This document shows, piece by piece, positions 1-12,176 of a stretch of DNA of 64,000 nucleotides. Position 1 is the stretch's first letter. The number at the start of each line of letters is the position of its first letter. The position numbers and the translations under genes are program-made. The notes under the pieces were generated by a model that saw only the letters and a program-made list of their open reading frames with translations, did not search any database and was not told the origin of the DNA. Source of the stretch: an uncultured Chloroflexia bacterium (GTDB taxonomy: Bacteria > Chloroflexota > Limnocylindria > Limnocylindrales > CSP1-4); contig CAWFXA010000002.1 in assembly GCA_963819655.1 (NCBI GenBank), positions 832,001 to 896,000 of the forward strand. Direction: 5' to 3'.

Positions 1-80
1 ACCTGGTGGTACAGCTCCTCGGCGCGATCGACGCGCCCGAACGACAGGGCCCGCTCCGCTTCGAGCAGCAGCTCGATCAT
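1..80 (-). CDS. TPR-like protein, N-terminal part (runs off the window start)
   Basis: ATG at 80 overlaps the cca stop (ATGA). Reads MIELLLEAERALSFGRVDRAEELYHQV, a TPR-like helix pattern. Confidence 0.6.
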   Translation of the reverse strand, partial: MIELLLEAERALSFGRVDRAEELYHQ

Positions 81-1462
81 CGGCTGGGATCCTGCGCGGC
101 CATCGACCGCGCGACCGCAAGGAGCCGGTCGCGGGTGTTGAGCGTCGGATCGCCGATCACCCGGTCGAGCAGCCGTTGCAGGGTCCGGCCGACGATCGGC
201 CCGGGCTTCCAGCCGAATTCCGTCATCAGGTCGGAGCCGTCGATCGCTAATGCCTTCAGGTCGAGAGCCGCGCCCGAGGTCAGCTGTGCCGCGACGCGGC
301 CCTTGAGCTCGGTGAGACGGCCGGCATCCGGCGGGTTGCCGGACCCGACGTTGTCCGCCTCACGCAGGAGGAACAGGTCGTCGAGTGCATCCTTCCCGAC
401 CTTCACGATGAACCGACGGATCGCAGCGTCGGACCAGGTCGGCACGTATCCGAACATGTGGTTGCGGATGAGATGGACCACGCGCTCCCGCTCGGTTGTC
501 GGCCAGCGCCAGCGATCGAGCACCTCGCGGGCCTGCTGGGCGCCGACGATCTCGTGGCCGACGAACCGACCGTCAGCCATCGTCGATGGCTTGCCCAGAT
601 CGTGCAGCAGGGCTGCCAACCGGATCCGTATCGGCTCCGACACGGCGCCATCGACGGCGCGCAGAGTGTGGTCCCACAGATCCTCGCCGGGAACCTTGTT
701 CTGGGGCACGCCCCGCTGCGCCGCCAGCTCGGGTGTCAGGTGAGCCAAGAGACCGGTGTCGAACAGCGGCCGGAGACCCGTCGACGGCCGTGAGGCCGCG
801 AGAAGCTTGCCCATCTCCGCCCCGATGCGTTCGCCCGACAGGTGGCTGACGAGCTCGGCGCGAGACCCGATCGCGCCCAGCGTTGCCGGCTCGATCGTGA
901 AGTCGAGGGTCGCCACCAGTCGGACGGCTCGGACCATCCTCAGCGCATCCTCACCGAACCGCGTCGCCGGGTCGCCGACCGCGCGGAGGGTGTGCGCCGC
1001 GAGGTCGGCGCGGCCGCCGTACGGGTCGACGAACCGCGGCTCGCTGCCCGGTTCGGCACCCCACGCCATCGCGTTGACCGTGAAGTCGCGACGCGCCAGG
1101 TCCACCTCGATCGAGTCGCCGAACTCCACCCGATGCGGCCGCCGGTAGTCCGCGTAGTCGTGGTCGGACCGGAACGTCGTGATCTCGACCTCGCCGACTC
1201 CTGGGTCACCGCCCCTGACCGCTACGGTCCCGAACTGGTTTTCGTAGGTGGCCCCCGGAAACAGGCTCGCCGTCATCTCGGGGAGGGCCGAGGTGGTCAG
1301 GTCCCAGTCCGTCGCAGGGCGACCCAGGAGCAGGTCGCGCACGGACCCGCCGACCACGTATGCGGCGTGGCCTTCGGACCACAGTGTCCCGAGGAGCTCG
1401 TGGATGGCGGCGGGGATCGCCGATGATGGATCGACCGGGGCTCGTCCCGCGTCGAGCGTCAG
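77..1462 (-). CDS. cca: CCA tRNA nucleotidyltransferase / poly(A) polymerase family with HD domain
   Basis: Motifs VGGSVRD, DWDLTT, EITTFR, DLARRDFTVNAMA, EDALRMVR, LLHDLGK. Start uncertain: CTG at 1462 overlaps the HNH stop; ATG at 1492 is an alternative. Confidence 0.9.
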   Translation of the reverse strand: MTLDAGRAPVDPSSAIPAAIHELLGTLWSEGHAAYVVGGSVRDLLLGRPATDWDLTTSALPEMTASLFPGATYENQFGTVAVRGGDPGVGEVEITTFRSDHDYADYRRPHRVEFGDSIEVDLARRDFTVNAMAWGAEPGSEPRFVDPYGGRADLAAHTLRAVGDPATRFGEDALRMVRAVRLVATLDFTIEPATLGAIGSRAELVSHLSGERIGAEMGKLLAASRPSTGLRPLFDTGLLAHLTPELAAQRGVPQNKVPGEDLWDHTLRAVDGAVSEPIRIRLAALLHDLGKPSTMADGRFVGHEIVGAQQAREVLDRWRWPTTERERVVHLIRNHMFGYVPTWSDAAIRRFIVKVGKDALDDLFLLREADNVGSGNPPDAGRLTELKGRVAAQLTSGAALDLKALAIDGSDLMTEFGWKPGPIVGRTLQRLLDRVIGDPTLNTRDRLLAVARSMAAQDPSR

Positions 1463-1974
1463 TTCCGCCCCAGGAAGAGGTAGGTGCGCCATGCATCGTT
1501 CCGCTCGTCCGTGAGGTACGGCGTGAACAGCGAATAGATGTCGCTGCGCGGCTCGAACGGGGTGCGGTGGAGCCGGAGGCGCGCTTCCTCGAGGGTCTTG
1601 CCGCCCTTGCGGTGATTGCATGACTTGCAGGCGGTGACGAGGTTCTCCCACGTGTGCCCGCCCCCACGATGACGGGGCATGACATGGTCGAGCGTCAGGT
1701 CGTGCGTCTGGCGCCCGCAGTACTGGCAGACATGACGGTCGCGCGCGAATACCTCGCGACGGGACAGTTTCACCCGCGGGCGGGGCCGGCGGATCATGTG
1801 CTGCAGCCGGATGACGGAGGGCGCGCGGAACTCAGTCCGCGGCGTCCGGATCATCTGGTGGTCGTACTCGATCACCTCGGCCTTCTCGCCGAACAGAAGA
1901 CGGAAGGCCCTTGGCAGATTGCAGACGTTCAGCGGCTCGTAGTTCTGGTTCAGAACGAGAACGACGCCGTCCAT
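1459..1974 (-). CDS. HNH endonuclease (McrA-like)
   Basis: VLVLNQNYEPL, RDRHVCQYCG, TLDHVMPRHRGG, WENLVTACKSCNHRKG. TATCCT lies 9 nt before the ATG. Confidence 0.92.
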   Translation of the reverse strand: MDGVVLVLNQNYEPLNVCNLPRAFRLLFGEKAEVIEYDHQMIRTPRTEFRAPSVIRLQHMIRRPRPRVKLSRREVFARDRHVCQYCGRQTHDLTLDHVMPRHRGGGHTWENLVTACKSCNHRKGGKTLEEARLRLHRTPFEPRSDIYSLFTPYLTDERNDAWRTYLFLGRN

Positions 1975-2047
1975 GGTGGGCGGAGGATAACAAGAACGCA
2001 GCGCGCCGCTGGGCGCGTGACCTAATGGTCGGCCAGCACGTGCTCCG

Positions 2048-2992
2048 TCACGCCTCGCGACCGGTCGCGCGGCCAGTCCGCTGGTCCCAGCCACCGGCCT
2101 GGCCCACCTTTGTCGTGAGCGGCTTCCCGAGGGCTTCCGCGATGAAGCGCGCCGCGACGAGGACGCCTTCGAGGGTCACGCCGTGCTCGTATCCGGACGC
2201 GTCGAGCATGTACACGAGATCCTCGGTCGCGAGGTTGCCGGCCGCTCCCGGCGCGTACGGGCAACCACCGGTCCCGCCGGTCGCGGAATCGAACGTCCGC
2301 ACGCCGGCCGCGAGACCCATCGCGACGTTGGCCAGCGCCGTCCCGCGCGTGTCGTGGAAGTGGTAGGCCTGCTGGCTCAGAGGTATCCCCGCCGCCTCCG
2401 CCAAAGCCACGACCTCAGCCACCTGGTCCGGGACGCCCACACCGATCGTGTCGCCGAAACAGATCTCGTCTGCACCGAGCGCGACGAGTCGGACCGCCAC
2501 GTCGACCGCGTCCGCTGGGTCGACTCGACCGGTGTATGGGCATCCGAACGCCGTCGAGACGTAGGCGCGTCGCCACCAACCGAGCTTCCTGGCACGCGCC
2601 AGCACGGGCGCGAACGCGGTAAGCAATTCGTCGACGGTCATGCCGATGTTGTGCCGCGTGAACGCGTCCGTCGCGGCCGTGAAGACGGCGATCGCGTCGA
2701 CGCCTGCCGCCTCTGCGCGAACCATGCCGCGCTCGTTCGGCACGAGGACCGGGTAGCGCACGCCCGGTCGTCGAGGAAGGCGCCCGAGCAGGTCGTCTGC
2801 GTCGGCGAGCTGTGGGATCGCGCGCGGCGACACGAACGAGGTAGCTTCGATCTCCTGGACGCCGGCGTCGACGAGCAACTCGATGAAGCGAACCTTGACG
2901 TCGGTCGGGACGGAGACCGCCTCGTTCTGCAGGCCATCGCGCGGCCCAACTTCGTAGATCCGGACGTGGCGCCCGCCGGGTCCCGGCGTCAT
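2048..2992 (-). CDS. hmgL: Hydroxymethylglutaryl-CoA lyase
   Basis: EVGPRDGLQNE, HFHDTRG, GGCPYAPGAAGNLATED. Confidence 0.95.
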   Translation of the reverse strand: MTPGPGGRHVRIYEVGPRDGLQNEAVSVPTDVKVRFIELLVDAGVQEIEATSFVSPRAIPQLADADDLLGRLPRRPGVRYPVLVPNERGMVRAEAAGVDAIAVFTAATDAFTRHNIGMTVDELLTAFAPVLARARKLGWWRRAYVSTAFGCPYTGRVDPADAVDVAVRLVALGADEICFGDTIGVGVPDQVAEVVALAEAAGIPLSQQAYHFHDTRGTALANVAMGLAAGVRTFDSATGGTGGCPYAPGAAGNLATEDLVYMLDASGYEHGVTLEGVLVAARFIAEALGKPLTTKVGQAGGWDQRTGRATGREA

Positions 2993-3006
2993 CGACCGGT
3001 CGTCAG
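2989..3006 (-). other. Bridging mini-ORF CTG-ACG-ACC-GGT-CGA-TGA
   Basis: Start overlaps the upstream stop (CTGA) and stop overlaps the hmgL ATG (ATGA). Confidence 0.4.
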
Positions 3007-3242
3007 ACGAGCGGCGGGTCCACCGCCCGCTCGATCCGGGCGATCTCGATCTCGATTCGGCCGATCAGCTCGATCGCCTCGACGTGCTCCGAGCTGCCGT
3101 GGGACGCCGCGTTACGACGCGCCCGGGTCTCGCGATGAAGGTCGAGGAGCTCGAGACGGGTCTGCGGCAGGGTGGTCCCTGTGCGCTGGGCGGCCTTCGC
3201 CGCGTGCTTCGTCCGCTTCTCGAGCTTCTTCTTCTCGCCCAC
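3003..3242 (-). CDS. Small hypothetical protein, 79 aa, Lys-rich N-terminus and helical
   Basis: Fills the operon gap exactly, has genome-like codon usage, and has TACGAT 6 nt before the GTG. Confidence 0.75.
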   Translation of the reverse strand: MGEKKKLEKRTKHAAKAAQRTGTTLPQTRLELLDLHRETRARRNAASHGSSEHVEAIELIGRIEIEIARIERAVDPPLV

Positions 3243-3266
3243 GACCGAATCGTACCGCGTCCGCGA

Positions 3267-5264
3267 TCAGGCGGGTTCGACGATCGCGAGCCGCTGGCCG
3301 CGGACGACCTGGTCCCCGGCGCCGACGAACAGGTCGGTGACGACTCCCGCATTGCTGGCCGTCACGGCGTGCTCCATCTTCATCGCCTCGAGGGTCACCA
3401 CGGCGTCGCCCGCCTCGACAGCTGTCCCGACCGGCGTGCCGATCGACAGGACCTGGCCGGGCATCGGCGCCACGAGCTCGACAGGACCCGAGCCATGGGC
3501 GGCCGCGGCGGCGCTCGCCGCTCGGTCGACATCAGGCGATGGCGCCAGGTGAAAGGCGATACTCCGACCGGCCAGGTCCAGGTGCACGGTGTCGCCCTCG
3601 CGGACCATGGCCGCGCGCGTCGTCGCGGTGCCAGGTGCCATGCGGACCGCCCGGACGGCGTCCTCCGCGGCCAGGCGCACGGTGTTCGCAGCATTCAGCC
3701 GAAACCCGTCACCGGCGGCGCGGCCGGCCAGCAGCGTCCGAGCCGCCGCCGCCCACGCCGCATCGGGGATGCGCGTGCGCTGCTGCCAGTCGTCCGGTGG
3801 CCAGATCCGTTCGAGGGTATCGGTCCGCGCTTGTCCGGCTCGAACGACCGGCTCGCGGACGAGCCAGCGCAGGAACCGCAGGTTCGTTGTCAGACCCACG
3901 ATCACGGTCGCGTCGAGTGCCGCGGTGAGGCGGTCGAGCGCCTCACCGCGGTCGCGGCCGTGCGCGACGATCTTGGCGAGCATGGGGTCGAAGCGACCGC
4001 CCACGTCGTCGCCTTCGTCGACTCCGGCATCGACCCGAACGCCGTCGCCGGCGGGCCAGCGGAGCTGGAGGATCGTGCCCGTCGCGGGCAGGAAGTCGTG
4101 CTCGGCATCCTCCGCGTAGACCCTGACCTCAACGGCGTGGCCGTCCCAGCGGATCTCGGACTGATCGACGCCGAGCGGCTCGCCGCCCGCGATGCGGATC
4201 TGGTCGGCGACCAGGTCCCGGCCCGTCACGAGCTCGGTCACCGGGTGCTCGACCTGGAGGCGGGTGTTCATCTCGAGGAACGTCAGATCGCCGTGGTCGT
4301 CGAGCAGGAACTCACAGGTCCCCGCGCTCTCATAGCCCACGGCGCTCGCCAGTCGCACCGCGGCGGCGCCCATCTGCTCGCGGATAGCGGCGTCGACGCC
4401 CGGGGAACCGGCTTCTTCGAGGACTTTCTGGTGGCGCCGTTGGATCGAGCAATCGCGCTCGCCGAGATGGACGCCATTGCCGCGTCGATCGAACAGGACC
4501 TGGATCTCGACGTGCCGCGCCCCCTCGACGAGGCGCTCGAGGATGAGCCGGTCGTCGCCGAAGGCGGCCGACGCTTCGCGCCTGGCGGCCGCGAGCTCGG
4601 GAGGCAGCCGGTCGAGGTCGCGGATGGTCCGCATGCCCTTCCCGCCGCCACCGGCTGCCGGCTTGATCAGAAGCGGTACGCCGATCCGCTCCGCTGCGGC
4701 GATCAATGCGTGGTCGGACTGGTCGGCGTCGTCGTAGCCGGCGGGTATCGGGATCCCGAGGTCAGCGGCGATCCGACGCGCTGCGGCCTTGTCGCCCATG
4801 GTGCGGATGGCCGCCGGCGGGGGACCGATCCAGGTCAGCCCGGCGTCAAGGACCGACTGGGCGAAGTCCGCGTTCTCCGCAAGGAAGCCGAACCCCGGGT
4901 GGATGGCATCCGCGCCGCCGCGCGTGGCTGCTTCGACGACGGCCAGGCCGTCGAGGAGGTCGACCGCGTCCGAGCCGGCGGTGTGTGGCACCACCACGCC
5001 GATGGCAAGCTCGGCGCACGTCCGGGCGATCCGCCGGGCGATCTCACCGCGGTTGGCCACGAAGACCGTGCGGACGGAACCGTGTGACGGCGGCGCGCCG
5101 CTGTCATTAGATGGTTCTAACGCGGCAAACGCGTCAAACGCGACACGCCAGCGTCCTCCAACGCGCCGAGCCGGGAGCCGGCCACTCACGATCCACCGCT
5201 GGACGGTTCTCGTTGAAGTCCTTAGTCGCCGCGCGACCTCACTGGGACTCAGTTCCTCGGCCAT
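3267..5264 (-). CDS. Methylcrotonyl/acyl-CoA carboxylase alpha subunit (biotin carboxylase + BCCP) with N-terminal excisionase-type HTH
   Basis: N-term LSPSEVARRLRTSTRTVQRWIVSGRLPARRVGGRWRV, then VANRGEIA, HPGFGFLAEN, GGGGKGMR, RDCSIQRRHQK, EMNTRLQVEHPVTE and the biotin motif EAMKME. Confidence 0.93.
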   Translation of the reverse strand: MAEELSPSEVARRLRTSTRTVQRWIVSGRLPARRVGGRWRVAFDAFAALEPSNDSGAPPSHGSVRTVFVANRGEIARRIARTCAELAIGVVVPHTAGSDAVDLLDGLAVVEAATRGGADAIHPGFGFLAENADFAQSVLDAGLTWIGPPPAAIRTMGDKAAARRIAADLGIPIPAGYDDADQSDHALIAAAERIGVPLLIKPAAGGGGKGMRTIRDLDRLPPELAAARREASAAFGDDRLILERLVEGARHVEIQVLFDRRGNGVHLGERDCSIQRRHQKVLEEAGSPGVDAAIREQMGAAAVRLASAVGYESAGTCEFLLDDHGDLTFLEMNTRLQVEHPVTELVTGRDLVADQIRIAGGEPLGVDQSEIRWDGHAVEVRVYAEDAEHDFLPATGTILQLRWPAGDGVRVDAGVDEGDDVGGRFDPMLAKIVAHGRDRGEALDRLTAALDATVIVGLTTNLRFLRWLVREPVVRAGQARTDTLERIWPPDDWQQRTRIPDAAWAAAARTLLAGRAAGDGFRLNAANTVRLAAEDAVRAVRMAPGTATTRAAMVREGDTVHLDLAGRSIAFHLAPSPDVDRAASAAAAAHGSGPVELVAPMPGQVLSIGTPVGTAVEAGDAVVTLEAMKMEHAVTASNAGVVTDLFVGAGDQVVRGQRLAIVEPA
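5119..5145. repeat. Three 9-bp direct repeats (AACGCGGCA/AACGCGTCA/AACGCGACA) at the 3' end of the HTH coding region
   Basis: Read directly from sequence. They force TTT/TTA codons, which are unusual for this GC content. Confidence 0.75.
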
Positions 5265-5266
5265 TT

Positions 5267-5302
5267 CGTCGCGAGTGTCGCATACGACGCGGTTTGCGCC
5301 TA
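5267..5302. promoter_or_regulatory. 9-bp-period repeat array (CGTCGCGAG/TGTCGCATA/CGACGCGGT/TTGCGCCTA) at the carboxylase start; candidate operator
   Basis: Same YGHCGC core as 5119-5145, in the opposite orientation. Confidence 0.5.
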
Positions 5303-6112
5303 GTCGCCGTCTCCAGGAGGCGACCATGACGGCCGCCGCTTCTCGTCGAATGCAGCAAAGCCCTCGCGTGCCTCGTCCGTGACGCGTTGGCGAGCGATCA
5401 CGCGCGCCGTGTGCCATTTCGCCGACCCGTGCCCGACGCCACGGACCTCACGAACGATCGCCTTGGCCGCGCGAACCGCGGTCGGGCCGGACGCCAGGAC
5501 ATCCCCGATCGCGGCATCGACCGCGTCATCGAGCGCGCCATCGCCCTCGACGACCTCGTGGACCAGTCCGATCCGCTGCGCGCGGACCGCGTCGAACCGA
5601 CGCCCGCCGGGGAACAGCGCCCGCGCGTGCGAATCGCCGATCTTGGCGACGACGAACGGCGCGATCACCGCGGGGAGGATCCCCAATCGCGTCTCCGTGA
5701 ACCCGAACCGGGTGCCGCTCTCGGCGATCACGAGATCGGACACGGCGCACAGGCCCATCCCGCCGCCGAGTGCCGCACCGTGGACGCGGGCGATCACCGG
5801 CACAGGACAGGTGTCGATGGCCTCGAACATGTCGGCCATCGCCATCGCATCCTGCTCGTTGCCCTCGACGTCGAGTGCCATCGCTGCGCGCATCCACGAA
5901 ACGTCAGCACCAGCGCAGAACGATGGTCCGTCGCCCGCCAGCACCACGACGCGGAGCCGGTCGGCGTCCTCCCGCGCGAGACCGGCAAACGCCGCGCGGA
6001 GTTCGGCGATCACCGACGCGTCGAAGGCGTTGTGGACATCGGGTCGAGCGAGCGTCACGCGTGCGACGACGCCGTCGGGACCGGAGCGCTCGAGACGCAG
6101 GGCCGGGCTCAC
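5300..6112 (-). CDS. Enoyl-CoA hydratase, probably methylglutaconyl-CoA hydratase
   Basis: RPDVHNAF, FCAGADV, ALGGGMGL, FTETRLGILPA; leucine-catabolism context. Confidence 0.9.
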   Translation of the reverse strand: MSPALRLERSGPDGVVARVTLARPDVHNAFDASVIAELRAAFAGLAREDADRLRVVVLAGDGPSFCAGADVSWMRAAMALDVEGNEQDAMAMADMFEAIDTCPVPVIARVHGAALGGGMGLCAVSDLVIAESGTRFGFTETRLGILPAVIAPFVVAKIGDSHARALFPGGRRFDAVRAQRIGLVHEVVEGDGALDDAVDAAIGDVLASGPTAVRAAKAIVREVRGVGHGSAKWHTARVIARQRVTDEAREGFAAFDEKRRPSWSPPGDGD

Positions 6113-6205
6113 CGCCGCATGGTACCGACAGCCGGCGCGTCGGATTCGCGAACCTCCGGTGCCACCAGACACCGAATCACCCCACCAGACAGGTACATTT
6201 CACCC

Positions 6206-6706
6206 ATGGGTCCCGCGAACCCGTGGTCTCCGAACTGGCGGCCCGACCCGACCGGCCGTCGCGCCATCGCGATCCGGTCGAGTCGTCGCGGGGCGCTGCT
6301 GGCCGGCGTGCTGCTCTGGCCACTCGTCCTGCTCGCGACACTGACGACACCCGGCGCGCTCGAGGCCGACGTCCGGCAGGTCGTCCTGGTCGCAGCTTTG
6401 TCGTGGCCGGGCCTGGCGCTGCTCGGCGCGGGGCTCGCCCCAGCCGCCCTCGGTTCCCGGATCGACGCGACAGTGGCGGGGATCGCACTGGGCATCGGCG
6501 CCCCGATCGCCGCCATCACGTCGGCCCTCATCGGGGTCGCCATCATCGCGTCGATCTCGAGCACCGGCGCGGGTGTCGGTGAAGCGCTCGGGATGACGAT
6601 CCGCCTGGGCGTGCTCGGCGCCCTGCGCTGGTCGCCGCTGCTGGTCGTCGTAGTGGTCGTCTGGCTCGTGGTCGTTCGGCAGACGGAGCGCCGACGGACC
6701 GATTAG
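6206..6706 (+). CDS. Hypothetical membrane protein (about 4 TM)
   Basis: Hydrophobic segments; TACATT 6 nt before ATG 6206. Confidence 0.7.
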   Translation: MGPANPWSPNWRPDPTGRRAIAIRSSRRGALLAGVLLWPLVLLATLTTPGALEADVRQVVLVAALSWPGLALLGAGLAPAALGSRIDATVAGIALGIGAPIAAITSALIGVAIIASISSTGAGVGEALGMTIRLGVLGALRWSPLLVVVVVVWLVVVRQTERRRTD

Positions 6707-7467
6707 TCGAGGACCGCCACCGCATCGCCGACGCGGACGCGGCCCGGCTGAGCGACATCGGCGAGGACCCCGAAATCCGCGTGCTTGCCCTCGCGCAGTC
6801 CGCGATAGGCGATGAGTGTGCGCAGCGTGTCGAGGTCACGGGTCCCGCTCTCCGGGTCCTGGGTCGTGATCGCGCAGCGTGCATCGGGCTTGGTGACCTG
6901 CAGCACGGCGTCACCGATGGCGATCCGGTGACCGATCCAGGTGTCCTCCTCGTGCGGCTCGGCATCCTCGAGATCGATGAGCATCCGGAAACGCCGGCCA
7001 TCCACAGACTCGACTCCAGCGTGGTGAGCGAGCTCCCTCAGCGAGCCGTCCGAGATGATGCTTGTCGGGTTGCCGCTCCGCGTGCCGCCCGGCCGGTCGC
7101 AGCGAATGACCCGGATCGGTCGACCGGCGAACGACGCGATCGCCTCGGCCCACGGGCCGATGACGACGCGGCCGACTCCGGTCCTGCCATGGACCGGCGT
7201 CTCGACCGGCTCGCCCAGCCCGACCTCCTCCTCGATGACGGTCCCGTCCGGGAACCGCATCCAGAGCGTCATGCCCGCCGGGTCCGTATGCGTCGAGATC
7301 TTGACGAGCGGGCCGACGATCAATCGATCGACCAGGCGGTTCGCGTCGTCGGTCAGGAAGAACCGCCGATCCTCGACCACGCCGACTTCGGTGATGTCGA
7401 TCTCGTCGGGGTGCTCGAGACCCATGCTGCGGACGGGAGAGATCGAGAAACGGGCGACGCGTGGCAC
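6703..7467 (-). CDS. MOSC domain protein
   Basis: ISPVRSM, DRRFFL, RRFRMLI, EEDTW, RCAITTQDP, GRVRVGD. Confidence 0.9.
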   Translation of the reverse strand: MPRVARFSISPVRSMGLEHPDEIDITEVGVVEDRRFFLTDDANRLVDRLIVGPLVKISTHTDPAGMTLWMRFPDGTVIEEEVGLGEPVETPVHGRTGVGRVVIGPWAEAIASFAGRPIRVIRCDRPGGTRSGNPTSIISDGSLRELAHHAGVESVDGRRFRMLIDLEDAEPHEEDTWIGHRIAIGDAVLQVTKPDARCAITTQDPESGTRDLDTLRTLIAYRGLREGKHADFGVLADVAQPGRVRVGDAVAVLD

Positions 7468-7505
7468 GCGCCGATGCTACCGGACGACGATCGCCGCGAC
7501 GCGCC

Positions 7506-8120
7506 TCACCGTAGCCCGACGCTCGCAAGCTCCGCCTTCGCCAGTCGCCCGTACTGGCCAGCCGCGTAATCGCCGAAGGGGTCCGAGGTGTAGTCGAGCA
7601 GCTCGGGATACGTCAGTCGATTGATCGCCCGCGTCGCGAGAGCGCGTTGCATCATCGCCGTGGAGACATCGACCGGTGCGCGCCGGATGGCCCGATGCGC
7701 GGCGCGGACCGTCGCGAGGCGGTCCGCTCGCCATGGGAGGTAGCGCGCCAGCCACGGGACGAGCATCACGGCAACGACCAGCAACCCGAGGAGCCGGGCG
7801 ATGAAGATCAGCAACGCCTCGAGCTCCTGGCCGGCCTGGACGATCGGCGCGCCGGCGGTGTCGAACGCGCCGGTCGCCAGCGAATCGATGCCCGCACCGA
7901 TGACGGGGACCCCGTTGAGGGCGTCGCCCAGCTGAGCGCCGGCGCCCTGGATGTTCCTGCCGCCGCCCTGGAGGACCCGGCCGGCCTCGGCGAAGCCCGA
8001 GATCGCGTCATGGATGCGCACGCCGATGACCACCCAGAGCGCCACCCAGGCCCATGTCGCCAGGTCGGCGATCAGCTCACGGGTCCTGGCCGTCCCGACC
8101 TCGCTGTAGAACTTGAGCAT
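7506..8120 (-). CDS. Hypothetical membrane protein (TM-helical-TM)
   Basis: SD AGGGAGG; two hydrophobic segments; follows the carboxyltransferase gene. Confidence 0.8.
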   Translation of the reverse strand: MLKFYSEVGTARTRELIADLATWAWVALWVVIGVRIHDAISGFAEAGRVLQGGGRNIQGAGAQLGDALNGVPVIGAGIDSLATGAFDTAGAPIVQAGQELEALLIFIARLLGLLVVAVMLVPWLARYLPWRADRLATVRAAHRAIRRAPVDVSTAMMQRALATRAINRLTYPELLDYTSDPFGDYAAGQYGRLAKAELASVGLR

Positions 8121-8135
8121 CCCGATCCTCCCTGG

Positions 8136-9734
8136 TCACATCCGGAAGACGCCGAATCGTGTTTCGGGTATCGGCGCGTGGAGCGCCGCCTCGAGGCCAA
8201 GGGAGAGGACGCGCCGCGTGTCCACCGGGTCGATGATCCCGTCGTCCCAGAGCCTGGCCGTCGCGAAGTACGGTGAACCCTCGCGCTCGTATGTCTCGAG
8301 GATCGGCGCCTCGAAGGCGTCGCGCTCCGCGTCGTCGGCGAAGTCGCCCCGGACGGTCGACAGGACGCGGGCCGCCTGTTGGCCGCCCATGACCGAGATG
8401 CGGGCGTTCGGCCACGACCACAGGAACCTCGGCTGGTAGGCCCGACCGCTCATCGCGTAGTTCCCGGCCCCGAACGACCCGCCGATCAGGATCGTGAACT
8501 TGGGGACCTCGGCGGACGCCACCGACATCACCAGCTTCGCCCCGTCCTTGGCGATGCCGGCCTCCTCGTACTCGCGACCGACCATGAACCCCGTGATGTT
8601 CTGCAGGAAGACCAGCGGGATGCGCCGCTGGCAGGCGAGCTCGATGAAGTGGGTGCCCTTCAGCGCCGACTGGCTGAACAGGATCCCGTCGTTCGCAAGG
8701 ATCCCGATGGGCACCCCGTCGACGTGCGCGAAGCCCGTGACGAGGGTCTCGCCGTACAGCGGCTTGAACTCGTGGAACCGCGACCCATCGACGAGGCGGG
8801 CGATGATCTCGCGGACCGGCACGGGCCGGCGCGGGTCGGCGGAGACGGCGCCGTACAGGCCCGCCGGGTCGACTTTTGGCGCCTCCGGAGCTCGGCGGTC
8901 CCACGGCGCGGGCGGCGAGGGACGGTTGAGGTTTGCGACGATCGACCGGCCGAGCGCGAGCGCGTGCTCGTCATCGAGCGCCTCATGGTCGGCGACGCCG
9001 GAGCGGCGTGTATGGACCTCCGAGCCCCCGAGCTCCTCGGCCGTGACGTCCTCGCCGGTCGCCGCCTTCACCAGCGGCGGCCCGCCCAGGAAGATCGTGC
9101 CGGTGCCCTTGACGATGACGGTCTCGTCGCTCATCGCCGGCACGTAGGCGCCGCCGGCGGTGGATGAGCCCATGACCAGAGCGACCTGCGGGATGCCGAC
9201 CGCCGACATCCGGGCCTGGTTGTAGAAGATCCGTCCGAAGTGATCGCGGTCGGGGAACACGTCGGCCTGGAGCGGCAGGAACGCGCCGCCGCTGTCGACG
9301 AGGTAGATGCACGGCAGGTGGTTCTCGAGGGCGATCTCCTGGGCACGGAGATGCTTCTTGACCGTCATCGGGTAATAGGTGCCGCCCTTGACCGTCGCGT
9401 CGTTGGCCACGACGACGCACGTCGTGCCCTCGATCCGCCCGATGCCGGTGACGATGCCGGCCCCGGGCGCGTCGTCGTCGTACAGCCCGTTGGCGGCCAA
9501 TGGGCTCAACTCGAGAAAGGCCGACCCGGGATCGAGCAGGTGGTCGATGCGGTCGCGGACCGGAAGCTTGCCGCGCTCCCGGTGGCGCTCGATCGAGCGA
9601 TCGTCGCCGCCGGCGCCTCGGTCGGCGAGCTCCGACTGCCGTCGGCGGAGGTCCTCGACCAGGGCGGCCATCGCGTCGTGGTTGGCGCGGGTGTCTGCGG
9701 CGGCAGGGTCCAGCCGGCTGCGCAGGACGGGCAT
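8136..9734 (-). CDS. Methylcrotonoyl-CoA carboxylase beta (carboxyltransferase) subunit
   Basis: [60 protein letters not shown]. Confidence 0.95.
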
Positions 9735-9780
9735 GGCGCCGATGATAGGTCGCCGGCTGGGTGCCAGGTTCCGGATGCTT

Positions 9781-9830
9781 GGCCCAGGTGCCCGGCCCAG
9801 GTGCCCGACCCAGGTGCCCGACCCGGGTGC
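9781..9830. repeat. 13-bp tandem repeat G[GA]CCCAGGTGCCC, about 4 copies
   Basis: GGCCCAGGTGCCC GGCCCAGGTGCCC GACCCAGGTGCCC GACCCGGGTGC. Confidence 0.9.
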
Positions 9831-9924
9831 ATTGACGTGACCCAGTCTGAGCCCTTGGGTCGCGACGTCGGCACCCCGATCGCCGATATGGTCGTGTGCT
9901 GATCACCGATCGGCCTGGGGGGGC

Positions 9925-9950
9925 GGAACCGCGCGGGAGGCAGCGACGTC
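9925..9950 (+). promoter_or_regulatory. Candidate ECF-sigma promoter GGAAC-N17-CGTC
   Basis: ECF-type boxes ending 8 nt before ATG 9959 (leaderless spacing). Confidence 0.45.
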
Positions 9951-9958
9951 GGGCGCCC

Positions 9959-10423
9959 ATGCTCGTACGGATCGCAAGATTCGCTCTCTTCGTTTCGATC
10001 GGGGCCGCGCTCCTTGGGTGTTCACCGGCGGCCGTCGCGTCGCTCCTTCCCGCGGCCGCAGGCCCGCTCGTCATGGTCACGACCCATGGCGGTGAGTGCG
10101 TCGACGGACCGTGCGGGTCGACGACCGTCATCGAACGCGACGGGCGCATCCATCAGACCGCGCCGGCGGCCGCCGAGCTCGGCACGGTGCCTGCCGACGT
10201 CCTGAGCGCGCTCGACGTGGCGGTCAAGGCGACCGATTTCGACGCCATCCGAGCTCGACCGTTCACCGGGGAATGCCCGGTCGCGTTCGACGGCCAGGAG
10301 TTCATCTACGAGTTCGGCGCGCCCACAGGCGTCGAGCGCATCGCGTCCTGCGAGACCGAGATCGACCCGGACAACCCACTGTTCGCGGCCACGACGGCAG
10401 CGCTCGCGGTCGTTGACCGCTAG
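9959..10423 (+). CDS. Hypothetical lipoprotein with paired cysteines
   Basis: Lipobox LLGC; GGECVDGPC, GECPVAFDG, IASC. Confidence 0.8.
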   Translation: MLVRIARFALFVSIGAALLGCSPAAVASLLPAAAGPLVMVTTHGGECVDGPCGSTTVIERDGRIHQTAPAAAELGTVPADVLSALDVAVKATDFDAIRARPFTGECPVAFDGQEFIYEFGAPTGVERIASCETEIDPDNPLFAATTAALAVVDR

Positions 10424-10435
10424 GTCCCGTCGGCG

Positions 10436-11366
10436 TCAGCCGAGGACGTCGCCGAGCGCGGCGTCGATCGTCGTGTAGCGGAATTCGTAGCCGAGCGCGC
10501 TCGCCCTGGCTGGCGCCACGCGCCGCGATCCGAGCAGAAGTACTGCCTGCTCGCCGAGCACGAGGCGGACGAGCCAGGCCGGGGCAGGGAATCGCGCCGG
10601 CCGATGCAGGACGCGCGCCATCGCGCGGACGAAGTCGATCTGGTGGACGGCGCCCGGGCTGGTCGCGTTGAGAACGCCGTCCGAGATGGCTTCGGTCATG
10701 GCCAGCCGGAAGAGGGCGACCGCATCATCGATATGGACCCAGCTCAGCCATTGCTGACCGCTCCCCAGGCGGCCGCCGAGGAAGAGGCGCACGGGGAGCG
10801 CCAGGAACCAGACCAGGTCCGCCTCGCGGGCGAGGACGTGCCCCATCCGCAATCGAGTCACGCGCACACCGAGGGACTCGGCGCGCCGTGCCTCGTCCTC
10901 CAGGGATCGGGAGACCTGGGCGAGGAACTCCGTGCCCATCTCTGTCTCCTCGGTCATAGGTGCCGGGTCGTCACCGGCCGGCGACTCTGCATAAGCGTCG
11001 ATCCCCGACACGACGACGAGGCGCGATGGACGGCGTTCGGTCGGCAGGCGCCCCAGCGCGTCGACGATCGCCCGGATCGGCGTCCACGCGACTCGACGCG
11101 ATGACGGCCTTCCGGCGGCGAGTCCACGGCCACGGCGCGACGCGCGCGCCGGCGAGGCTGACGACGACATGCGCCCCCGCGATCGACTCGGCCAGGCCCG
11201 GCACATCCTCGGCGGACCACCGGGTGAGCCGGGCTCCGGGCGGGATCACCTTCCTGCGGCGCTGCGGATCTCGTGACAGCACGACGACGTCGGCGTCGTC
11301 CGCCAGGAGCGATCGCGTCAACGCACGACCGACCAACCCGGAACCACCCACGATCGCCACTTTCAT
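10436..11366 (-). pseudogene. TIGR01777-family NAD-dependent epimerase, split by a +1 frameshift near 11078
   Basis: GGSGLVG...SLAGA...SRVDA in one frame. IRAIVDAL...GSGQQWLSWVHIDD...LGYEFRY in the next frame. Confidence 0.85.
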
Positions 11367-11398: not shown

Positions 11399-11416
11399 GT
11401 CATAGCAAGTTATGAC
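11399..11416. promoter_or_regulatory. Inverted repeat GTCATA-N6-TATGAC over the regulator start; candidate operator
   Basis: Perfect palindrome in a lower-GC divergent promoter region, directly after TGCTACTCT. Confidence 0.6.
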
Positions 11417-12176
11417 GCAGAAACTCGCTACTGTCAATGCGCATGAATCGATCGGCGATGCCGACCAGGGCGCTCGCCCGTCCACCGCCGAGTCGATCCG
11501 GCTCGATCTCGCCGACGCCTGGGGTGAGATGGGCGCTGCCTGGGGCGTGACGCCGGCGATCGCGCGCGTGCAGGCGTACCTGATGGCGCGTCAGGAGCCG
11601 CTGACGGAGCGCGAGGTCCGCGAGGCGCTCGGGCTGTCGCATCGAGCCGCGAGCCTCGCCCTCGCCGAGGCTGAATCGTGGGGCCTCGTCCAGCGCGTGT
11701 CGGAGCCGCGGCGGGTCGGCCGACGCGGACCGGCGGGTACGGCGTTCCTTGCCGTGAACGATCACTGGCAATGGTTCGGCCGCGTCATCGCCGAGCGCAA
11801 GAGCCGCGAAGGCGATCCGGTCGTCGCGGTGCTCGAGCAGAAGGCCAAGGAGGCGGCGGCGGCCGCCAAGGCCGACCCGGACGACACCGAGCTGGCAGCC
11901 CTCCATGACTGGTTAACGTCGTTTGTCGTGTTCGTCCGGCTGTTCGACCGAGCGGTCGGTATCGTCCCGCAGCTGGAACCGCGCGAGCTCGAGCGGGCCC
12001 TTCAGCTGCTGGATCGCGTGCCGGATGACACGGTCCTGCGCCTGTTCGATCTGCTCGGCGGTCTTGATGACGACGACGTCCTCGAGCTTGTCGAGACGGT
12101 CTCGCGCCTCTCGCCGAAGGCGGCGCGCCGGGCGACCAAGCTGATGTCGGGCGTCGTGCGGACCGTCTCCCGGTAA
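11412..12176 (+). CDS. GbsR/MarR-family transcriptional regulator
   Basis: WGEMGAAWGV...ARVQAYL...EALGLSHRAASLALAEAESWGLV. Confidence 0.85.
   Translation: MTQKLATVNAHESIGDADQGARPSTAESIRLDLADAWGEMGAAWGVTPAIARVQAYLMARQEPLTEREVREALGLSHRAASLALAEAESWGLVQRVSEPRRVGRRGPAGTAFLAVNDHWQWFGRVIAERKSREGDPVVAVLEQKAKEAAAAAKADPDDTELAALHDWLTSFVVFVRLFDRAVGIVPQLEPRELERALQLLDRVPDDTVLRLFDLLGGLDDDDVLELVETVSRLSPKAARRATKLMSGVVRTVSR

Follow-up and report, generated by a model that had tools for sequence, protein, structure and literature searches.

A biotin carboxylase-type enzyme encoded in the window (the whole stretch of DNA analysed, 64,000 nucleotides) carries a DNA-binding domain of the BldC/Xis type at its N-terminus, and its gene contains two arrays of 9-bp units, one overlapping the promoter and the other, in inverted orientation, lying in the codons for the end of that domain. 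Comparison across genomes shows a genuine fusion that has been conserved among uncultured soil Chloroflexota of one group, and selection on the DNA sequence of both arrays (consensus NAWY-GCGWC). On this comparative evidence, drawn from related genomes and thus from samples that are not independent, we consider it rather probable that the enzyme represses its own promoter through the predicted 9-bp sites.

The fusion gene and its cluster

The fusion gene, its domains and its neighbours in the cluster are as follows.

3267–5264, minus strand: fusion gene for a methylcrotonyl-CoA carboxylase (MCC)-type alpha subunit of 665 aa, with HTH_17, linker, biotin carboxylase and biotinyl (BCCP) domain (Pfam, NCBIfam)
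5118–5252, minus strand: HTH_17 winged-helix domain, residues 5–49 (Pfam and structure models)
5079–5117, minus strand: flexible linker, residues 50–62, varying in sequence and length, with pLDDT <50 at residues 50–61
3282–3479, minus strand: biotinyl/lipoyl domain (PF00364, residues 596–661) with the EAMKMEH biotinylation motif, E626–H632 being invariant in 42 sequences
5300–6172 (start uncertain), minus strand: enoyl-CoA hydratase family gene, the upstream neighbour (ECH_1, E 4e-43)
8136–9734, minus strand: carboxyltransferase (beta subunit) gene of the cluster (Carboxyl_trans, E 8e-146)
2048–2992, minus strand: hydroxymethylglutaryl-CoA (HMG-CoA) lyase gene, downstream of the fusion gene (NF004283, 356 bits against a cut-off of 246)

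The open minus-strand frame spans 3267–5417, of which the fusion gene occupies 3267–5264. The ATG at 5264 is the true start codon, because the upstream gene ends with TAG at 5302–5300 and M1 was invariant in 43 of 43 aligned orthologue N-termini. In the 665-aa product, HTH_17 (PF12728) matched residues 5–48 (E 1.4e-11, 44.9 bits against a cut-off of 27), the NCBIfam model TIGR01764 ('excisionase family') scored 38.8 against a cut-off of 28.8, and Biotin_carb_N, CPSase_L_D2, Biotin_carb_C and Biotin_lipoyl all exceeded their Pfam cut-offs. The latter four domains and the AMKM lysine mark the protein as the alpha subunit (BC plus BCCP) of a biotin-dependent acyl-CoA carboxylase, and the GGGGKGM loop, like the EAMKMEH motif, was invariant among the alpha-subunit orthologues. 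Both the Pfam assignment and the AlphaFold2 model of the full-length protein (mean pLDDT 86.7) place the catalytic and DNA-binding domains on one polypeptide, as in an enzyme-regulator fusion. No conservation of the linker was observed in alignment A2 of the 43 orthologue N-termini, and three relatives (G110, G200 and G206) have longer linkers.

Gene context suggests that the fusion protein is the alpha subunit of a leucine/isovalerate-catabolic, MCC-type enzyme, because the cluster has a carboxyltransferase, an enoyl-CoA hydratase and an HMG-CoA lyase, the last of them above its cut-off. The product of 5300–6172 is probably methylglutaconyl-CoA hydratase, all its NCBIfam matches being below their cut-offs. 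The alpha subunit itself reached no NCBIfam equivalog cut-off; its homologues are named MCC alpha in some sources, and its substrate may be of the geranyl-CoA type. A terminator-like hairpin (2011–1995) was detected after the lyase gene by the terminator scan. The original prediction that no separate regulator lies inside the cluster held for the ORFs scanned from 2048 to 10423, among which no transcription-factor family was found, with the limit that three of these ORFs matched no family at all. Further along, at 11412–12176 (plus strand), MarR_2 was matched below threshold (24.2 against 27 bits).

Distribution of the fusion

The domain was in frame with the carboxylase, as had been read from the window, in 47 of 47 loci from many independent assemblies, and a single in-frame, stop-free match was found in at least 110 of the 251 genomes of the class Limnocylindria (public-record name). 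A genome was counted as fused if the match ran from query residue 6 or earlier to residue 138 or later; the figure is a hand count among the 150 matches listed, beside which 351 further matches exist, and it includes genomes flagged as unpublished (G159, G123, G249, G087 and G096). Leaving out the window's own genome (G000 of family f1, the 110th), the fused genomes among the matches listed were distributed over families f1 (at least 30 of 72) and f4 (at least 79 of 83), with none in f3 (0 of 82) or f2 (0 of 11). The best 120 of 761 proteins sharing the HTH all had a biotin-carboxylase domain. Full-length orthologues were 52–92% identical, and the fusion gene occupies a conserved chromosomal position in the catabolic cluster in both families. 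In unfused orthologues the hydratase gene is directly followed by the carboxylase gene, which is likely the ancestral arrangement.

An HTH encoded apart from the carboxylase, which would speak against the original prediction, was seen in none of the 47 loci; in two relatives, G074 and protein P0004 (93% identical), the two parts are in different frames. This break is either an indel error of the assembly or a real split, and if the split is real, the covalent link between HTH and carboxylase is dispensable.

A winged-helix domain of the BldC/Xis type

In the structure models the domain consists of two helices (residues 7–14 and 18–27), a beta wing (32–42) and a short C-terminal helix. The top fold match was the Xis of mycobacteriophage Pukovnik (4J2N: TM 0.71 on the query and 0.81 on the target, 40% identity), and BldC, including its DNA complex (6AMA and 6AMK), matched with TM 0.75–0.78 on the target, rmsd 1.2–1.5 Å and 36–38% identity; BldC was also the best sequence match of the domain in the PDB (E 0.0015). 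Only a disordered linker comes after the wing in the model, leaving a MerR-like winged helix without coiled-coil or effector domain, which is the fold of the BldC family. A classical MerR protein was not recognized, since the MerR model PF00376 scored only 18.4 against 28.2 bits and the modelled domain has no coiled-coil; the operator geometry of that class, a palindrome in a long -35/-10 spacer, is likewise absent, the direct repeats lying over the -10/start region and not between -35 and -10. The folds agree with the earlier assignment to the excisionase/BldC type. Members of this type with solved structures sit head-to-tail on short direct repeats, the unit being 9 bp for BldC. Xis proteins stack on direct repeats.

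Xis-type recombination directionality factors (Pukovnik Xis 4J2N; RdfS 8DGL) are related to the domain by the top fold and by the Pfam and NCBIfam 'excisionase' models. Unlike them, it is found at a conserved position in a catabolic cluster, and no mobile-element context was observed among the ORFs scanned, except one HNH endonuclease ORF.

According to the BldC study (PMC5859096), DNA is contacted by K26, R30 and W31 and by the wing residues H46, R47 and R48, the protomers bind head-to-tail with each on one 9-bp direct repeat AATTXXXX(C), the number of repeats is variable, and the wing requires the AT-rich AATT tract. In the HMMER alignment, R19, R23, W24, R38 and R40 of the enzyme stand opposite K26, R30, W31, H46 and R48 of BldC, and W39 stands in place of R47. 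Among 43 orthologues, R19, R23, W24 and R38 were invariant and R40 was at least 90% conserved. The domain resembles Streptomyces BldC in its MerR-like winged-helix fold without dimerisation coil, in its conserved contact residues and in its putative sites, 9-bp direct-repeat arrays of variable number, which here have two and three units. It differs from BldC, described there as a stand-alone 68-residue pleiotropic developmental regulator, in being tethered to a 600-aa enzyme, in having GC-rich units (NAWY-GCGWC, AT-rich part only ~3 bp) where those reported for BldC are AT-rich, and in that its predicted sites were found only in the enzyme's own gene.

Two arrays of 9-bp units

The units are located as follows.

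5268–5285, minus strand: promoter site, P1 GTATGCGAC (5285–5277) and P2 ACTCGCGAC (5276–5268), ending 3 nt before the ATG
5286–5294, minus strand: possible third promoter unit AACCGCGTC, common to the closest relatives L001 and L003 only
5118–5144, plus strand: internal site TAACGCGGC AAACGCGTC AAACGCGAC, three 9-bp units in codons 41–49, inverted relative to the promoter site

The minus strand from 5294 to 5268 reads AACCGCGTC GTATGCGAC ACTCGCGAC, followed by GAA and the ATG. GCGAC-N4-GCG(A/C/T)C was present 0–6 nt 5' of the start codon in 46 of 47 loci, and the pattern ..CGAC[AG][AC]T[CT][GA]CG.C in all 47 fused loci. The original prediction had seen four upstream repeats, of which the two next to the ATG proved to be conserved; the third is restricted to L001 and L003, and the fourth, GCGCA, located where the upstream gene has its stop codon, was not conserved. 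Its reading of this array as an operator needs to be extended, since the conserved units overlap a promoter of the leaderless type, with an extended -10 (TG at 5282–5281, hexamer GACACT at 5279–5274). In the genome, TANNNT peaks 6–9 nt before candidate start codons (158, 103, 55 and 54 against a background of ~12), and the 47 loci had TG only (30), a TTG -35 only (11), both (3) or neither (3). These sequence elements give the fusion gene a promoter of its own (extended -10, or -35 plus -10), positioned so that the mRNA would be leaderless or nearly so.

TGCGACAMT, the first half of the promoter site, is similar to the usual extended -10 of the lineage: TGn[GC]ACA[AC]T boxes of a similar kind precede the MBL-hydrolase gene in many relatives, and GGCGACAAT stands before the ATG of L111, an unfused f3 orthologue in which the second unit is absent. 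HTH specificity is therefore clear only for the second unit and the internal array. The second half, CGCG.C, is not generic; CGCGAC was outside the 15 commonest spacers of 158 leaderless-type sites, in which CGCGCC occurred twice, and CGCG.C was found in just 2 of 30 orthologues of another leaderless gene (MBL-fold hydrolase). Two units near the start were found in none of the five unfused orthologues (f3 loci L111–L113; L122 and L123 of f1 genus g2), so the promoter array co-occurred with the HTH in 47 of 47 fused against 0 of 5 unfused loci, a comparison among related genomes and not among independent samples.

Codons 41–49 (5144–5118) are GTC GCG TTT GAC GCG TTT GCC GCG TTA, confirming the internal repeats with TTT and TTA codons that had been noticed in the window; on the strand opposite to the gene they form units NAAC-GCG(T/A)C, and they encode the end of the HTH. 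The codons used at this site are rare (TTT 3.2% of Phe, TTA 0.2% of Leu and CGT 9.2% of Arg genome-wide, from 2,654 crude ORFs with GC3 >0.8, a selection that exaggerates the bias somewhat). Synonymous sites were almost frozen across codons 40–49 (5118–5147), as predicted for the arrays: codon entropy was 0–0.48 bits at the five conserved 4/6-fold codons of residues 40–49 and 0.63–2.47 bits at the other 43 (n = 37 sequences, Mann–Whitney p = 1.5e-4). The strict internal pattern was retained in 33 of 37 f1 and 8 of 9 f4 orthologues. Family f4 has other residues here (RVSRSSL) in a shifted register, yet in 8 of 9 orthologues GCGAC-N4-GCGAC is retained with strand and location unchanged.

When the 3.49-Mb genome was scanned on both strands for 3-unit arrays, the internal array (36.4) and the promoter array (27.6) ranked first and second, ahead of a next best score of 20.7; the 9-bp-unit matrix was made from 37 orthologues that include the window's own sites and two near-identical relatives. 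The two arrays are oppositely oriented, as had been claimed: two units cover the -10/start region, and two to three inverted units follow ~123 nt further downstream. In 38 of 46 orthologues, 122–126 nt separate the last position of the promoter site from the internal GTCGCG.

Predicted autoregulation and alternative explanations

In the proposed mechanism, the HTH domains of the enzyme would bind the 9-bp units head-to-tail, one domain per 9 bp as in BldC, and occupation of the -10/start site would block RNA polymerase, so that the enzyme would repress its own synthesis. The internal site would contribute cooperativity, acting either through a ~145-bp loop or as a roadblock. More speculatively, occupancy may be set by the state of the enzyme (free alpha subunit versus holoenzyme, biotinylation, ligands), and the enzyme might sense beta-subunit assembly, biotin or methylcrotonyl-CoA. 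A stronger version, which we regard as unlikely, is that the assembled carboxylase itself is the repressor, with the HTHs of several alpha subunits filling the three internal and two promoter units and closing the ~145-bp loop, and with transcription depending on whether alpha is free or in the holoenzyme, on biotinylation or on domain movements driven by ligands. Enzyme assembly or activity would in that case feed back directly on the promoter of the enzyme's gene, through a BldC-type filament templated by the enzyme oligomer, and if the holoenzyme is the active repressor, the subunit stoichiometry of a multi-subunit carboxylase would be policed at the promoter.

Alternatively, the arrays could be real cis elements that are not read by the fused HTH, the upstream one being a promoter only (extended -10 plus discriminator), the internal one serving another factor (e.g. 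a stand-alone HTH_17 protein) or another DNA-level role, and the HTH having another target or function. We hold this explanation, the most probable of the alternatives, to be doubtful. The generic first half of the promoter site, present in unfused L111, fits it, whereas the second unit and the internal array were confined to loci in which the HTH is fused (47 of 47 against 0 of 5). Other potential readers exist, as HTH_17 was matched seven more times in the genome, five times above the Pfam cut-off, the matches including a stand-alone 65-aa open frame. However, the arrays have no counterpart elsewhere in the genome, which leaves no further regulon in view, and the internal array repeats the promoter units in inverted orientation and in the same 9-bp register, which fits a BldC-type reader. 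The HTH-carboxylase link would not be obligatory if the frame-split relatives are real. The invariance of the DNA-contact positions of the fused HTH speaks against this alternative.

The HTH might also be a neutral leftover of a small autoregulated Xis/BldC-like gene. Such a gene would have entered the cluster between hydratase and carboxylase, its stop codon would have been lost, and the enzyme would simply tolerate the extra domain. The gene order of the unfused orthologues, with the hydratase directly before the carboxylase, and the disordered, variable linker are consistent with such an origin. A neutral relic would decay, however, and the in-frame fusion is kept in at least 109 other genomes of two families, down to ~50% identity, with invariant DNA-contact residues and strong constraint on both DNA sites, making this explanation very unlikely.

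Action of the internal conserved sequence as RNA is hardly credible, whether by long-range pairing of the 5' motif with codons 41–45 (11–12 of 14 complementary) or by local ACGCGU hairpins tuning translation or stability of the leaderless mRNA. Pairing between the promoter motif and the internal element is possible at 8–12 of 14 positions (G-U counted), but no compensatory changes were found: where motif positions 1, 10 and 13 vary, pairs are lost and the partner stays unchanged. ACGCGT is self-complementary, yet family f4 retains GCGAC-N4-GCGAC and not the hairpin-forming copies, the RNA fold of 5095–5170 had a z-score of only -0.91, with 35 of 200 shuffles folding at least equally well, and Rfam gave no match. 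The -10/-35 geometry sets the motif upstream of the transcript start, even though read-through from the upstream gene could bring it into RNA in the window's clade. Finally, despite the general risk of metagenome assembly and the frame break in the linker of two relatives, an assembly or frameshift artefact of one genome is refuted by the in-frame architecture in 47 of 47 loci from many independent assemblies and in hundreds of database proteins.

Comparison with known enzyme-regulators

BirA (biotin protein ligase/bio-operon repressor) and PutA are textbook cases of metabolism acting directly back on transcription; to our knowledge, few kinds of such enzyme-regulator fusion exist. BirA is an enzyme of biotin-dependent metabolism whose N-terminal winged helix serves as a transcriptional repressor; its operator is palindromic and is bound by a dimer that forms on biotinyl-AMP. 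The fusion protein differs from it in enzyme family, in its BldC-type domain and direct 9-bp repeats, and in that its own gene is the predicted target. PutA and other 'trigger enzymes' share with it a catabolic enzyme bearing a covalent DNA-binding domain, and autoregulation, predicted here, is known for PutA, which acts on its own locus via a ribbon-helix-helix with a redox/membrane switch; here the domain is a BldC-type HTH. The leucine-catabolic liu clusters provide the same pathway context (carboxyltransferase, hydratase, carboxylase alpha subunit and HMG-CoA lyase), but their regulators LiuR, which is MerR-like, and LiuQ are separate proteins with palindromic operators, whereas here the HTH is part of the enzyme and a separate regulator was not found among the ORFs scanned.

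Full-text searches found no paper on the HTH-biotin carboxylase architecture and no described enzyme-regulator fusion among biotin-dependent carboxylases, and the fusion would represent a lineage-wide case in abundant, uncultured soil Chloroflexota. If the predicted autoregulation is true, the BldC recognition mode (9-bp head-to-tail repeats) would be extended to a GC-rich unit and a tethered domain. The internal site would be a clear example of codons dictated by a predicted DNA site for the very protein that they encode. Since the predicted operators are precisely delimited (two promoter units and three in the coding sequence), they are directly testable with the 60-residue domain and 200 bp of DNA.

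Architecture of the fusion gene and its neighbourhood

The fusion gene lies in a minus-strand open frame extending from 5417 to 3267 and starts at the ATG at 5264. The TAG at 5302–5300 is the end of the preceding enoyl-CoA-hydratase-family gene, and M1 was invariant in 43/43 orthologues, all of which start at the equivalent methionine. The relevant features are as follows.

3267–5264, minus strand: fusion gene, encoding a 665-aa carboxylase alpha subunit
Residues 5–48 of the product: HTH_17 (PF12728), Pfam E 1.4e-11, 44.9 bits against a cut-off of 27
C-terminal of HTH_17: Biotin_carb_N, ATP-grasp domain and Biotin_carb_C, by profile matches
Within the product: biotinyl domain containing EAMKMEH
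5268–5285, minus strand: promoter site, two 9-bp units before the ATG
5118–5144, plus strand: internal site, three 9-bp units
Neighbour in the cluster, same strand: hydratase
6703–7467, minus strand: MOSC-domain gene, between the carboxyltransferase and hydratase genes
7506–8120, minus strand: 204-aa ORF without a Pfam family, between the same two genes
8136–9734, same strand as the fusion gene: carboxyltransferase
Downstream of the fusion gene, same strand: HMG-CoA lyase, above its NCBIfam cut-off

The TIGR01764 'excisionase' model also matched the product (38.8, cut-off 28.8). In an AlphaFold2 model built with 42 homologues as input (mean pLDDT 86.7), a winged helix made of helices 7–14 and 18–27 and a wing at 32–42 (pLDDT 76–84) was connected to the carboxylase by a linker at residues 50–61 (pLDDT <50). 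Biotin_carb_N matched its Pfam profile in two separate stretches, residues 64–103 (window 4958–5075, minus strand) and residues 104–153, the latter aligning to profile positions 61–110; about 19 residues of the usual domain appear to be absent, and homologues are equal in length.

The gene order is that of a leucine/isovalerate (liu-type) catabolic cluster, and the enzyme is named as methylcrotonyl-CoA-carboxylase-type by gene context only; no equivalog cut-off was reached in an NCBIfam search of the product. The candidate regulator nearest the cluster is an ORF at 11412–12176 (plus strand), whose MarR_2 match of 24.2 bits is below the threshold of 27. Elsewhere in the window, a CCA-adding/poly(A) polymerase family ORF (77–1651, minus strand) shares about 190 nt of its 5′ part with an HNH endonuclease ORF (1459–2094, minus strand), probably because one of the two listed starts was set too far upstream.

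Distribution of the fusion in Limnocylindria

The original prediction had placed the HTH in frame with the carboxylase, and the search for this architecture across genomes established the fusion as real and lineage-wide. In a large protein collection, PF12728 was found together with carboxylase domains in most of the best 120 full-length homologues (69–93% identity), the few named ones of which belonged to 'Candidatus Limnocylindrales'. With the HTH region alone as query, 761 proteins of 365–1164 aa were retrieved, and all of the best 120 of these matches carried HTH_17 and a biotin-carboxylase domain. Annotation of these entries in the databases is automatic, under the names 'excisionase family DNA binding protein' and 'biotin carboxylase N-terminal domain-containing protein'.

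Among species-representative genomes, 17 Chloroflexota/Limnocylindria loci aligned from residue 1–3 to the end (52–92% identity); loci of Actinomycetota and Proteobacteria aligned from about residue 60 only. Nine of the 59 non-Limnocylindria loci (L021–L080 except L029) were read, picked mainly because their tblastn match reached furthest upstream of residue 60 (L021, L022, L032, L033, L043, L047, L049, L058 and L064), and in 9/9 the upstream frame had no HTH; a fusion beyond the class was rejected on these nine loci. Within the class, at least 110 of 251 genomes among the matches listed, including five flagged as unpublished, had a single stop-free match from residue 6 or earlier to residue 138 or later of the first 140, as counted by hand over 150 listed matches with 351 more outside them. 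By family, and excluding the genome of the window (G000, family f1), the fusion was found among these listed matches in 30/72 genomes of f1, 79/83 of f4, 0/82 of f3 and 0/11 of f2. Three further genomes (G110, G200 and G206) combined both halves in a single open frame, with a longer linker between them.

In at least 110 of 251 genomes the HTH is not a separate ORF, the alternative that the original prediction had allowed for; such a separation is possible in two relatives. In genome G074 (locus L121, G074:C1:1795900–1797100), the HTH and the carboxylase were read in different frames, the break falling in the linker, and the promoter motif, HTH and internal repeat were otherwise intact. In the relative protein P0004 (93% identical), the two frames also differed, again with the linker as the place of the break, and the N-terminus resembled the +1 frame of the end of the HTH. 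Each break is either an indel of the assembly or a sign that the gene is truly split, and in the latter case would count against an obligatory covalent link. Several further gene calls that are short (MPARRVGGRW..., MANRGEIA...) appear to reflect where the gene caller placed the start. Public reads consisted of short, low-depth Logan contigs of relatives only, and no run contained half of the sampled words; the HTH–linker junction was covered in a single 151-nt DNA contig (X1, 5129–5279), and contigs of two RNA libraries (X19 and X20), which span 5261–5407 and 5268–5363, were uninformative on transcript start or transcription.

The promoter site

The motif ..CGAC[AG][AC]T[CT][GA]CG.C was found directly before the start codon in 47/47 fused loci read, among them the window's copy (L081) and two loci that are near-duplicates of each other. 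With start codons chosen by rule, the gap between the site and the start codon was 0–6 nt in 46/47 loci, and the 31-nt outlier is probably an artefact of the start-codon pick. The remaining upstream region was not conserved and the upstream gene varied among loci.

The position of this site was compared with starts throughout G000 (3.49 Mb, 69% G+C). Here the ORF set was crude (longest ORFs with GC3 >0.8) and its starts were uncertain, so that all in-frame ATG/GTG codons of the first 80 were used as candidate starts. TANNNT ending 6, 7, 8 and 9 nt before candidate starts occurred 158, 103, 55 and 54 times (about 370 in total; the background elsewhere was about 12 at each offset), a distribution which shows that leaderless-type starts are in wide use across this genome. 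In the fusion loci, GACA(A/C)T occupies the expected position of the −10 box. A TG extended −10 alone was found in 30 of the 47 loci, a TTG −35 (16–18 bp) alone in 11, both in 3 and neither in 3; this complementary pattern is as would be expected of a working promoter, the genomes being related and not independent. A strict sigma-70 consensus scan of window 1900–10500 detected no promoter; the window's clade depends on TG + −10, which is outside the scan's model.

A 15-nt matrix scan of G000 gave one look-alike of the promoter site, TGCGACACTCGCGCC followed by g-ATG at G000:C3:214205, before the following gene.

G000:C3:214205–214859, plus strand: MBL-fold hydrolase gene, 213 aa (locus L124), with TGCGACACTCGCGCC 1 nt before the ATG

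This hydrolase was rejected as a regulon member, since the full motif was present in just 2/30 orthologue loci (own copy L127 counted) and many had the TGn[GC]ACA[AC]T box only; TGCGACACTCGCGCC is probably a merely similar extended −10 promoter. The locus then served as a control for a plain promoter of the lineage. The first unit of the promoter site, which in the window reads GTAT-GCGAC, overlaps both the TG and the −10 box, and by this control it is not special, as MBL-fold hydrolase orthologues often have TGn[GC]ACA[AC]T at equal distance. The same comparison singles out the second unit, A[AC]TC-GCG[ACT]C (47/47 fusion loci versus 2/30 MBL loci): it fills the discriminator, which elsewhere in G000 is unconstrained (at the 158 sites, spacers were GC-rich and without consensus, CGCGCC occurred twice and CGCGAC was outside the 15 commonest). 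On this evidence the upstream repeats comprise a promoter and a further element.

The internal site

The question raised with the original prediction, whether the 9-bp arrays are conserved at synonymous sites, was answered in the affirmative for the internal repeats. In 37 non-redundant f1 orthologues, codons 40–49 read CGT GTC GCG TYT GAC GCG TTN GAC GCG TTC with nearly no synonymous change: Arg40 was CGT in 34/35 (CGT at other Arg positions, 2–13 of 37), Val41 was GTC in 37/37, GCG was used at Ala42 in 34/37, Ala45 in 35/35 and Ala48 in 34/36, and GAC at Asp44 in 33/33 and Asp47 in 32/32. Codon entropy was 0–0.48 bits for the five conserved 4/6-fold codons, compared with 0.63–2.47 bits for 43 other such codons in the first 125 residues (Mann–Whitney p 1.5e-4). 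The window's codons CGT, TTT, TTT and TTA in this stretch account for 9.2%, 3.2%, 3.2% and 0.2% of the codons of their amino acids in a high-GC3 ORF sample of G000.

On the opposite strand, this stretch reads as three 9-bp units, NAAC-GCGTC, NAAC-GCGTC and A(G/A)AC-GCGAC, which share the format of the promoter units; the flanking 9-mers were not conserved. The strict pattern GCG[AT]C-N4-GCG[AT]C was found on that strand in 33/37 f1 sequences; the coding strand lacked it throughout the first 240 nt. In family f4 the residues at this position differ (RVSRSSL) and the register is shifted, and GCGAC-N4-GCGAC was kept on the same strand (CDS 123–139) in 8/9. A protein-level explanation cannot fit such strand-specific conservation in f1 and f4 despite different residues, and, judged from this pattern, the internal repeats are under selection at the DNA level. 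In 38/46 loci, 122–126 nt separate the promoter site from the internal GTCGCG.

The promoter motif is approximately the reverse complement of the internal element, with 8–12 of 14 positions pairable (G-U included), and pairing between them as RNA, or hairpin formation, was considered and rejected. Motif positions 1, 10 and 13 carry substitutions that disrupt pairs and are not compensated, no covariation was seen, folding of the internal-site region was no better than that of shuffles (z = −0.91), Rfam gave no match, and the promoter geometry leaves the motif untranscribed. The complementarity is better explained by an inverted DNA site.

Occurrence of the arrays with the HTH

Both strands of G000 were scanned for 3-unit arrays with a matrix built from five unit classes, the window being one of the 37 training sequences and two more being near-identical. 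The internal site ranked first with a score of 36.4 and the promoter site second with 27.6, and the third best scored 20.7. No similar arrays were seen by eye at the stand-alone HTH_17 genes of this genome. In five unfused orthologues, carboxylase genes without the HTH from family f3 (L111–L113) and from genus g2 of the window's own family (L122 and L123), the carboxylase gene came directly after the hydratase gene or had a plain start. A two-unit site was found in 0/5 of them within 250 nt upstream of the conserved start-proximal ANRGE(I/V) motif, and the sole one-mismatch match was inside the hydratase coding region. At L111 (G001:C32), GGCGACAAT lies 8 nt before the ATG and the second 9-bp unit is absent; GGCGACAAT may represent an ancestral −10 box, with the second unit a later addition.

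Resemblance of the HTH to BldC and Xis

The best PDB sequence matches of the HTH were 6AMA and 6AMK (E 0.0015–0.0018), followed by Pukovnik Xis Gp37 and RacA. A model of residues 1–62 (pLDDT 77.5) superimposed on Pukovnik Xis with a TM of 0.81 on target and on BldC–DNA complexes with a TM of 0.75–0.78 (rmsd 1.2–1.5 Å); it also matched RacA and, more weakly, MerR-family heads. According to the BldC report, each BldC protomer takes one 9-bp direct repeat, AATTXXXX(C), protomers are stacked head-to-tail with a variable number per array, Arg30 and Lys26 make base contacts, Trp31 kinks the backbone, and the wing residues His46, Arg47 and Arg48 are placed in the AT-rich minor groove (PMC5859096). 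In the HMMER alignment, BldC Arg30, Lys26, Trp31, His46, Arg47 and Arg48 correspond to R23, R19, W24, R38, W39 and R40 of the query, of which R19, R23, W24 and R38 were invariant and R40 nearly so in 43 orthologues of both families.

The units of the fusion locus share with those of BldC the layout of a short A/T-rich head, four bases and then C, although they are far more GC-rich, and the proposed mode of DNA reading would be that of BldC; unlike BldC, the fusion protein does not stand alone. It also differs from classical MerR proteins in having neither a coiled-coil nor a palindromic site in the spacer. BirA and PutA are enzymes with a built-in repressor domain, and the fusion protein would resemble them in this respect. 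No publication on an HTH–carboxylase fusion was found in a full-text literature search.

Proposed autoregulation

The evidence, all of it comparative and drawn from related genomes, demonstrates that the fusion is conserved, that its gene has a promoter of its own, and that two arrays of 9-bp units, inverted relative to each other and unique in the genome, are conserved and co-occur with the HTH. BldC-type domains oligomerise on DNA only. We propose that the HTH domains bind both arrays head-to-tail. As the promoter array spans the −10 box and the transcript start, which is expected at about 5267–5264, its occupancy should exclude RNA polymerase, and negative autoregulation would be expected. 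The internal array, whose centre lies about 145 bp from that of the promoter array, could add cooperativity via looping or block elongation. More speculatively, because there are several alpha subunits in one holoenzyme, assembly state or ligands could change the number of HTHs that reach the DNA.

A second HTH_17 fusion is encoded in G000 outside the window (G000:C2:64930–67863, plus strand; positions 431–3364 of locus L125), a 977-aa protein with HTH_17/MerR_1 at residues 14–63, three GAF domains and a GGDEF diguanylate cyclase domain.
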